DNA from: Eledone cirrhosa
Taxonomy: Eukaryota
Direction of reading: 5' to 3'
DNA length: 64,000 nucleotides
Assembly (NCBI GenBank): GCA_964016885.1
Contig: OZ024744.1
Span: 75,206,001 to 75,270,000 of the forward strand
Positions within the stretch are counted from its first letter, which is position 1, and every line of letters starts with the position of its first letter. The notes beneath the pieces were generated by a model. It did no database searches. It was not told the DNA's origin and was given only the letters and a program-made list of their open reading frames with translations. This document shows, piece after piece, positions 18,527-19,441 of this stretch. A program made the position numbers and the translations under genes.

Positions 18527-18677
18527 ATCTATATATATATATATATGTATGTTTTGAAACAAGTGAGCAGGTTTGAAATTAGAAATAGAATAGCTTTCAT
18601 CGTATTTTTTTGACTAAAGAAATTTTAGTCTGATAACGTGGTTTAGAACCCTCAGATAAATGGAAATAGATGAGTAT

Positions 18678-18748
18678 TGATGTACATGGGAGTCGAACCC
18701 ACATCTTTGGTTATCCAGACCACTCTGCTACCATTACACCAACACATC
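18678..18748 (-). tRNA. tRNA-like sequence (pseudo-tRNA, GGA at the anticodon position) inside an inverted repeat
   Basis: 71-nt cloverleaf GATGTGT-TG-GTGT-AATGGTA-GCAG-A-GTGGT-CTGGATA-ACCAA-AGAT-GTGGG-TTCGACT-CCCAT-GTACATC-A; A and B boxes intact; one mismatch each in the D and anticodon stems; no long variable arm. Confidence 0.6.
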
Positions 18749-19441
18749 ACCCCATTATCAGACTAAAATTTCTTTAGTAAAAAAAATACGGTGAAAGTTA
18801 TTCTATATATATATATATATATATATATATATATATATATATATATATATATATATATATATATATATATAGATATATATATATATATATATATATATAT
18901 ATATATATATATATATATATATATATATATATATATATCAGATTAACTTTGGTGTGACAACGGATATACATATATTTATGTCTACATATTTGAAAGATAT
19001 CTGTCTATCATTAATGAAAGAAAAGATATATATTTATGTCTAAAGAAATATAGGCAACCAATAGAGCAACCAGCCAACTAACCGGCCAGTTAAGAAGTCA
19101 GTCAGCTACCGTCGTCAGCAACCACACCACTAGCCAACAAAGAAATAACGACATCATCACCAACAGCAGTAGCAAACTATATCTGCAGAAGGCTAACACA
19201 TAATGACATAGCTAGCTGTCCTTGATAGCGTGTCTGTCGTACACACTAATGATGTGTCGACTCAAACCGAAGCAGGCTAAATTTAATGACGACATCTGCG
19301 TTCCAGTTAATCTGCCAGATACCACCAGTACAGCTGTCGCAACGTACTAACTATGCTCCGTTTGCTGGCTTCTTTCTCGTCGACATTCGGTTCTCGACGT
19401 CTCGTTTTGTATCAGAAACTGGTTGGTTGCCAAGAGACGGC

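Follow-up and report, generated by a model that had tools for sequence, protein, structure and literature searches.

A 260-bp non-coding repeat with a tRNA look-alike and no hammerhead, inserted back to back and probably copied by a Penelope-like enzyme

Animal non-LTR retrozymes are low-GC, non-coding tandem units of 150-450 bp with a type I hammerhead, and mobilisation by Penelope-like elements (PLEs) has been proposed for them (PMC7229834; bioRxiv 10.64898/2026.07.22.740005). PLE insertions themselves are described as partial tandems with an inverted, 5'-truncated copy, a tail of 30-40 bp at one end and a bias toward (TA)n; some PLE clades are without hammerheads, and the route by which the tandem and inverted insertions are built is described as unresolved (PMC8557442). 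Sm-alpha of schistosomes combines a tRNA-Gln-like promoter with an active hammerhead in tandem repeats that are described as Pol III transcribed (PMC6765202, PMC2770079).

The family reported here has in common with the retrozymes, as characterised in the available parts of those two sources, a short tandem unit, dispersed copies and a self-paired RNA (predicted here). Unlike them it has no type I hammerhead, carries a tRNA on a stalk instead and shows no pLTR homology, and a circular RNA is not shown here. Its unit is short, non-coding, low in GC and dispersed, in tandem arrays of 1 to ~25 units, and it falls outside the retrozymes because it has no hammerhead. With PLE insertions it shares the partial tandem with an inverted 5'-truncated copy, the one-sided 30-40-bp tail and the (TA)n bias, whereas it lacks an ORF, a single 260-bp unit makes up the entire element, and a tRNA-like module does not figure in the available part of the PLE description (PMC8557442). 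A tRNA-derived module in tandem repeats also links it to Sm-alpha/Sj-alpha, and Gln is the best D-arm match here too; it differs from the available accounts of these repeats in the missing hammerhead, a run of T5-T8 after the tRNA and one subfamily without A58. The TRIMp3 elements Helenus, Ajax and Cassandra (Kojima 2024, PMC10886601) are likewise non-autonomous retroelements with non-decoding sequence derived from small RNAs and possible tandem arrays; as the accessible text describes them, they belong to the LTR class, with a primer site and 5-bp duplications, in contrast to the Penelope-type ends and conserved cloverleaf of this family. A search confined to the literature, outside the repeat databases Repbase and Dfam, turned up no account of a PLE passenger that bears a tRNA and lacks a hammerhead, nor of truncation that depends on A58. 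In the available part of a repeat annotation for one animal rich in microsatellites, SINE and Penelope classes are named and no such family (PMC13282606).

The window, by which we mean the whole stretch of 64,000 nucleotides from Eledone cirrhosa, contains, between (TA)n tracts within 18528-18938, a fold-back insertion that consists of a long arm with the tRNA and a short inverted arm of a 260-bp tandem unit. The explanation that we consider probable is that a non-coding repeat with a tRNA look-alike and no hammerhead was inserted back to back, likely through copying by a Penelope-like reverse transcriptase (RT) and endonuclease; the tRNA part of its RNA has a predicted fold and is a likely target of host methylation at A58. 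The features of the locus are as follows.

18528-18546, no strand: left (TA)n target tract, from the sequence
18547-18752, minus: long arm, unit positions 257-260 followed by 1-200 (260-bp repeat of subfamily A), 'long' 3' end class, 95% to the subfamily A consensus
18547-18584, minus: tail of ~40 nt in a single arm only, a putative Penelope-type extension by its end classes and its likeness to the insertions described in the available part of PMC8557442
18585-18636, minus: long-arm body segment complementary to the short arm (left arm of the initial annotation), 49/52
18656-18674, minus: trailer strand of the predicted ~19-bp stalk below the tRNA, containing the T5 run, here broken by T>A at 18667
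18678-18748, minus: tRNA-like cloverleaf, GGA at the anticodon position, 4-nt variable loop (ARAGORN; Rfam 44.7 bits)
18690-18698, minus: B-box-like T loop with A58 at 18693, beside which most family copies are truncated; the window copy is read through
18731-18741, minus: A-box-like sequence, D arm; family consensus identical to the D arm of host tRNA-Gln in 17/18 bases
18749-18752, no strand: head-to-head junction of 4 bases common to both arms (microhomology), read from the sequence
18749-18806, plus: short inverted arm, unit 107-162, 'short' 3' end class, by alignment to the unit
18804-18938, no strand: right (TA)n target tract, from the sequence

The 71-nt cloverleaf with A and B boxes reported by the initial annotation is recognised both by ARAGORN, as tRNA-Ser(GGA) at 18677-18749 on the minus strand, and by Rfam (RF00005, 18678-18748 minus, 44.7 bits where the cut-off is 29, E 3e-6). 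The anticodon position GGA lies at 18716-18714, and both boxes, A at 18741-18731 and B at 18698-18690, conform to the usual consensus. The cloverleaf is imperfect: a G27xA43 mismatch is family-wide in subfamilies A-D, and the window copy has one more mismatch in the D stem, where unit position 24 is changed C>G. The strand that would pair with the stalk trailer is absent from the window copy through 5' truncation. (TA)n tracts lie on both flanks, and the two arms of the initial annotation, 18585-18636 and 18755-18806, are indeed complementary at 49 of 52 bases; a repeat search lengthens them to 63 nt at 89%. The notion of a cassette enclosed by an inverted repeat holds in that this complementarity is real, but there is no fixed bracket: the left arm is an internal piece of the 206-bp stretch 18547-18752, which also contains the tRNA, no separate terminal repeat is present, and the right arm is a variably truncated second copy. 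The window copy, of subfamily A, runs from unit 257 to 200 on the minus strand and then through 107-162 on the plus strand. Contigs from three runs of one sample contain the tRNA-bearing family and opposite-strand joints, and none of them spans the junction or flanks of the window locus. A second fold-back fragment of the family, short, older, of body sequence only and 83% identical, is found at 63685-63759.

A search of the animal's own genome (3.0 Gb) with the window element gave 2147 candidates, 40 of which were scored. Most matches span 18547-18752 in one piece, and therefore the tRNA and the left arm belong to one unit, which occurs in family loci as head-to-tail copies at 260 bp spacing. 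Exact matches genome-wide are far above chance: 1185 for a 20-mer of the tRNA, 1947 for the T-arm motif with A58 and 8160 for a 17-mer of the body, with none for each reversed control. Subfamilies A-D, with units of 258-290 bp, are the youngest and most numerous. Subfamily E (unit of 287 bp) is older, its copies having a mean identity of 88% to the consensus, and has T in place of A58; its body has 616 exact matches without A58. Single arms can span as many as 4 units. One array, older and cut by the locus edge, holds ~25 family units and is seen in L094 (1-6817), three higher-order copies of one fold-back in L110, and a further old T58 lineage, whose different acceptor 5' strand still pairs, in L299, L310, L317 and L324.

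Two sets of insertions were compared, one selected by the tRNA (122 clusters from loci L001-L130) and one unbiased set of 75 loci chosen by a body motif in genome order (123 arms). The former comprises 86 two-arm, 35 one-arm and 1 four-segment cluster, and the tRNA-sense 3' ends face outward in all 86 two-arm loci; the same holds for 48/48 two-arm loci of the unbiased set, in which 27 of the 75 loci are single-armed. These 3' ends adjoin a TA run in 109 of 123 arms and form two classes at AT microhomologies, a short one at unit ~157-170 and a long one at ~200-212, offset by ~40-50 nt. One short and one long end are paired in 56 of 63 classifiable two-arm loci of the tRNA-selected set (31 expected, p=5e-11), 22 of 85 being unclassifiable with one end outside both classes, and in 40 of 48 of the unbiased set. 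Arm lengths range from ~25 to >1000 bp and inner ends differ from locus to locus, and target-site duplications are unreadable within the (TA)n flanks of family loci.

These observations bear on a proposal that we regard as very improbable: the element would be an ordinary SINE with a tRNA head, mobilised by a LINE and inverted by twin priming, or else a DNA element of the MITE kind, bounded by terminal inverted repeats. It would fit that the tRNA head is joined to a body unrelated to it and then to a flank of simple repeat, a 5' tRNA head with A and B boxes (the criterion for a tRNA-derived SINE) is present in A-D, and twin priming yields inverted tRNA/LINE chimeras according to the accessible part of one preprint (bioRxiv 10.1101/2025.02.02.635956). 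However, the tandem unit is seamless and has sequence upstream of the tRNA, a T5 run follows the tRNA, the paired ends face outward in two fixed 3' classes, and head loss at A58 is the rule rather than the exception; the short/long pairing in particular largely refutes it. A MITE or TIR element was rejected for its part because there are no fixed terminal inverted repeats and arm lengths and inner ends vary. The alternative raised in advance, that the cloverleaf was merely the head of a SINE inserted by chance, gives way to the seamless tandem units across loci, in which the tRNA co-occurs with the arm sequence. Many arm-family members do lack the tRNA, which the initial annotation had named as a separate refuting outcome, but they lack it because they are cut at the tRNA T arm.

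The evidence is that both arms of an insertion come from one template. Four lineage markers are concordant in 113 of 113 opposite-arm pairs and in 93 of 96 tandem-unit pairs, where 55-75% is expected by chance, so that each insertion has one haplotype. Two further markers are less concordant within loci (u251 12/16, u137 36/52), one being a G>A hot spot and the other a homopolymer edge. A single haplotype in each insertion is compatible with a circular template as much as with a homogeneous multimeric one.

The agreement with the hammerhead fold-backs that the initial annotation had pointed out extends to autonomous elements: L176, with RT and GIY-YIG domains, is a fold-back with one short and one long end, and the hammerhead family adjoining the window locus has the same layout of short and long ends. 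A search for GIY-YIG elements in the host genome gave 10596 candidates, of which 150 were scored, and autonomous elements with open RT and endonuclease frames are present (Pfam). From the layout of its ends, the family is very probably mobilised by Penelope-like enzymes. The expected extension of family copies into a PLE ORF did not appear: tblastn with 6 PLE proteins against the 130 family loci gave matches in 6 loci, none adjoining a family element. Single-arm loci (n=34) have no upstream sequence in common, and among 50 GIY-YIG loci there is no sequence tie between the unit and an autonomous PLE (best E 0.91). With neither an adjoining frame nor a sequence tie, the partner is therefore inferred and not named. 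Penelope-like elements with long open frames, an RT and a C-terminal endonuclease-like region, which are candidate active partners, lie at L161:4809-7622 (minus) and L163:1775-5062 (plus). Within the window, 12393-12415 (plus) and 57555-57577 (minus) carry a hammerhead that matches the 3' repeat of the autonomous PLE family in L164, L168 and L176. A hammerhead-bearing family of Penelope-type 3' ends is found at 18395-18530 (plus), directly left of the insertion, and at 30313-30452, 47437-47568 and 34709-34798; its core is mutated at 18403 and intact in the copy at 30318, and it forms fold-backs elsewhere.

The idea of a tRNA mimic without a ribozyme has stood up, as the consensuses of subfamilies A-E contain no intact hammerhead core on either strand under a relaxed descriptor that does find the local minimal hammerheads and scored 3 of 6 control stretches. 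That a hammerhead is hidden in the unit, or survives there in degenerate form, was rejected on the same grounds; one-mismatch matches in the consensuses are weak, and 7 of 100 shuffles give them too. No hammerhead in the unit was found by Rfam at E<=10 either, in a search that missed the local minimal hammerheads.

The sense strand of the unit folds better than shuffles both as a circle (z -2.8, against +0.65 for the antisense strand) and as a linear molecule (z -2.3 against +0.6). In each of the five subfamilies, leader and trailer are predicted to pair below the acceptor stem in a stalk of ~19 bp that includes G-U pairs, whereas the acceptor end itself is disrupted in B, and the D arm forms only if constrained, being absent from the unconstrained free-energy fold. 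The stem-pairing check that had been proposed among copies bears out the fold. A and E are identical at 62 of 71 tRNA positions and 108 of 147 body positions; of the 9 tRNA differences, 4 lie in stems, where pairing is kept or restored every time, and 5 in loops, the anticodon and U33 among them. Since stems are kept while loops and anticodon drift, these comparisons argue that the cloverleaf fold is under constraint and decoding is not. The view that this is no normal decoding tRNA is borne out as well, by an anticodon that is GGA or GGC depending on the subfamily, the loss of U33 in E, U37 in A-D and the lack of a long variable arm.

Host tRNA-Gln is identical to the family tRNA at 43-45 of 71 positions and at 17 of 18 D-arm bases, and the 4-nt variable loop is common to both; Gln is the best of the host types compared (Gln, Trp, Thr and a few odd types). 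Ancestry from Trp, which matches the D arm only, and from phage tRNAs, with weak partial matches only, was rejected. A host tRNA-Gln cluster (L208-L218, G000:C1:168.21-168.24 Mb; overlapping loci, some counted twice) has 8 ARAGORN calls with a CTA anticodon, 6 of them identical, which are amber-suppressor-like Gln derivatives. An unrelated dispersed element of at least ~1.7 kb (L193 and L195-L203, about 1190-2960) carries another intact tRNA look-alike ~307 bp in, with odd anticodons and 53-71 Rfam bits; it starts with a small hairpin after TA, has an internal inverted repeat of ~175 bp and looks DNA-type.

The 5' ends of the arms are concentrated at the T arm, where A58 in tRNA numbering is unit position 56. 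In the unbiased set 45 of 123 arm 5' ends fall at unit 55-63 (3.7 expected), 33 of the 45 at 61-62, and the left edge of the pile is at 55-58. A second pile at unit position 41 proved to be an alignment artefact of palindromic junctions. Where A58 is kept, 68 arms extend as far as the T arm and 41 of them end at it (A 17/25, B 7/14, C 12/23, D 5/6). Subfamily E, with T58, was sampled likewise (65 loci, with 4 of three segments left out and 2 scored inward-facing), and 7 of its 70 arms stop at the T arm as against the 41/68 with A58 (p=3e-10), a contrast that may be confounded in that E is older, differs at other T-loop and D/anticodon bases and maybe uses another enzyme.

m1A58 is a known RT stop (PMC11401796, in its available part), and the truncation pile likely records a block of the RT at this base; its limitation to A58 suggests that the family RNA would be chemically modified by the host like a real tRNA. 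Most stops lie 4-5 nt downstream of A58, and trimming to a microhomology must therefore be assumed. At a second T arm within the same arm, stops are rare (3/29 vs 41/68, p=4e-6), and read-through copies have no excess change at A58 (4/182, like other A sites), which suggests that templates are either modified or not.

A DNA-level effect, in which the overlapping palindromes CATG, GTAC and ACGT at unit 61-69 favour joining with no tRNA-like handling, would account for the position of the 33 stops and for the many junctions that are palindromic, and yet it is highly unlikely. Neither the T stem nor the palindromes downstream of it differ in E, which is identical at unit 58-80 and has no pile; single-arm loci joined to TA pile up at the T arm too (10/16), other AT or palindromic sites are not used in this way, and second-pass stops are rare.

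The truncation could also be a real RNA 5' end, left by a host nuclease that cuts within the T loop or at the borders of the tRNA. Processing as a tRNA would then stand in for the hammerhead in releasing monomers, which could be ligated to circles. We hold this to be improbable. Few second-pass stops are expected if templates are cut or intact, and such a cut would likewise disappear in E, which has lost the T54-A58 pair; all-or-none methylation accounts for the same numbers, no insertion ends cluster at the RNase Z site of family loci, and E has spread without the signal. The stalk of leader and trailer may, by the preferences that we presume for these enzymes, hinder RNase P and RNase Z, and we count it against a cut. 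In its favour, 3' tRNA fragments are described as beginning in the T loop, which corresponds to unit 55-58, the left edge of the pile (PMC11401796), and tRNA ligase circularises retrozymes (PMC7229834), as far as the accessible text of both sources goes. A ribozyme-free class of Penelope parasites, whose tRNA mimic recruits the host methylase, nuclease and ligase to cut and circularise the RNA in place of the hammerhead, is a speculative proposal. RNA ends defined by RNase P and Z, one of two roles first suggested for the cloverleaf, are not supported, with no cluster of insertion ends at the RNase Z site and an excess at the 5' border that appears only in the tRNA-selected set (see below).

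The other suggested role was that of a Pol III promoter. In this form the same Penelope passenger would use its tRNA mainly as an internal RNA polymerase III promoter, as in a hammerhead-less Sm-alpha, and leaky read-through of T5 would give the template; we consider it possible and the less likely reading. The A and B boxes are canonical in A-D, A58 is kept despite the cost of truncation, and precedents are at hand in the available accounts of Sm-alpha (PMC6765202, PMC2770079) and of Helenus and Cassandra (PMC10886601). Insertion 5' ends at -10..+9 of the tRNA start number 22 against 9.7 expected in the tRNA-selected set, which includes the window copy and for which the bin was chosen post hoc, and there is no such enrichment in E, whose B box lacks A58 (2 vs 4.3). 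Against this, the unbiased set has no excess (5 vs 4.0). Of 103 subfamily A copies, 93 have an intact T5 run, which lies 10 nt 3' of the tRNA and precedes the two priming sites, the E consensus has T8 after the tRNA, and E reached its 616 exact body matches without A58. Arms run through up to 4 units, with the one array of ~25, and whole stems are conserved, not the boxes alone. A plain promoter role is thus weakened by the T5 run and the spread of E. Because of the T5/T8 run and that spread, an RNA-level role is ranked above the promoter: the tRNA on its stalk may well be a folded, host-recognised stabilising domain, a reading of the predicted fold to which we give an even chance. That the tRNA part is a Pol III promoter is a tentative possibility, and that it is a neutral relic is doubtful.

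In the explanation that we favour, copying of the 260-bp repeat by a Penelope-like enzyme, a multimeric or circular RNA would be made, probably by read-through transcription. The enzyme would cut the (TA)n tract and prime DNA synthesis from both sides on the same RNA, at AU microhomologies at unit ~157-170 and ~200-212. Synthesis would stall at m1A58 in ~60% of arms and otherwise continue into upstream units, and the two cDNAs would be joined head-to-head via a few shared bases.

The family provides a 260-nt substrate with mapped priming sites, arms that on the marker evidence share one template, and a natural A58/T58 pair, which makes this copying step of PLEs testable. With more than 1000 copies, the tRNA look-alike is liable to be mis-annotated as tRNA-Ser genes or SINEs. 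The results suggest that PLE passengers need no ribozyme, and that genome copies of retroposons may record RNA modification; if true, thousands of genomic copies keep an in vivo map of an RNA modification.
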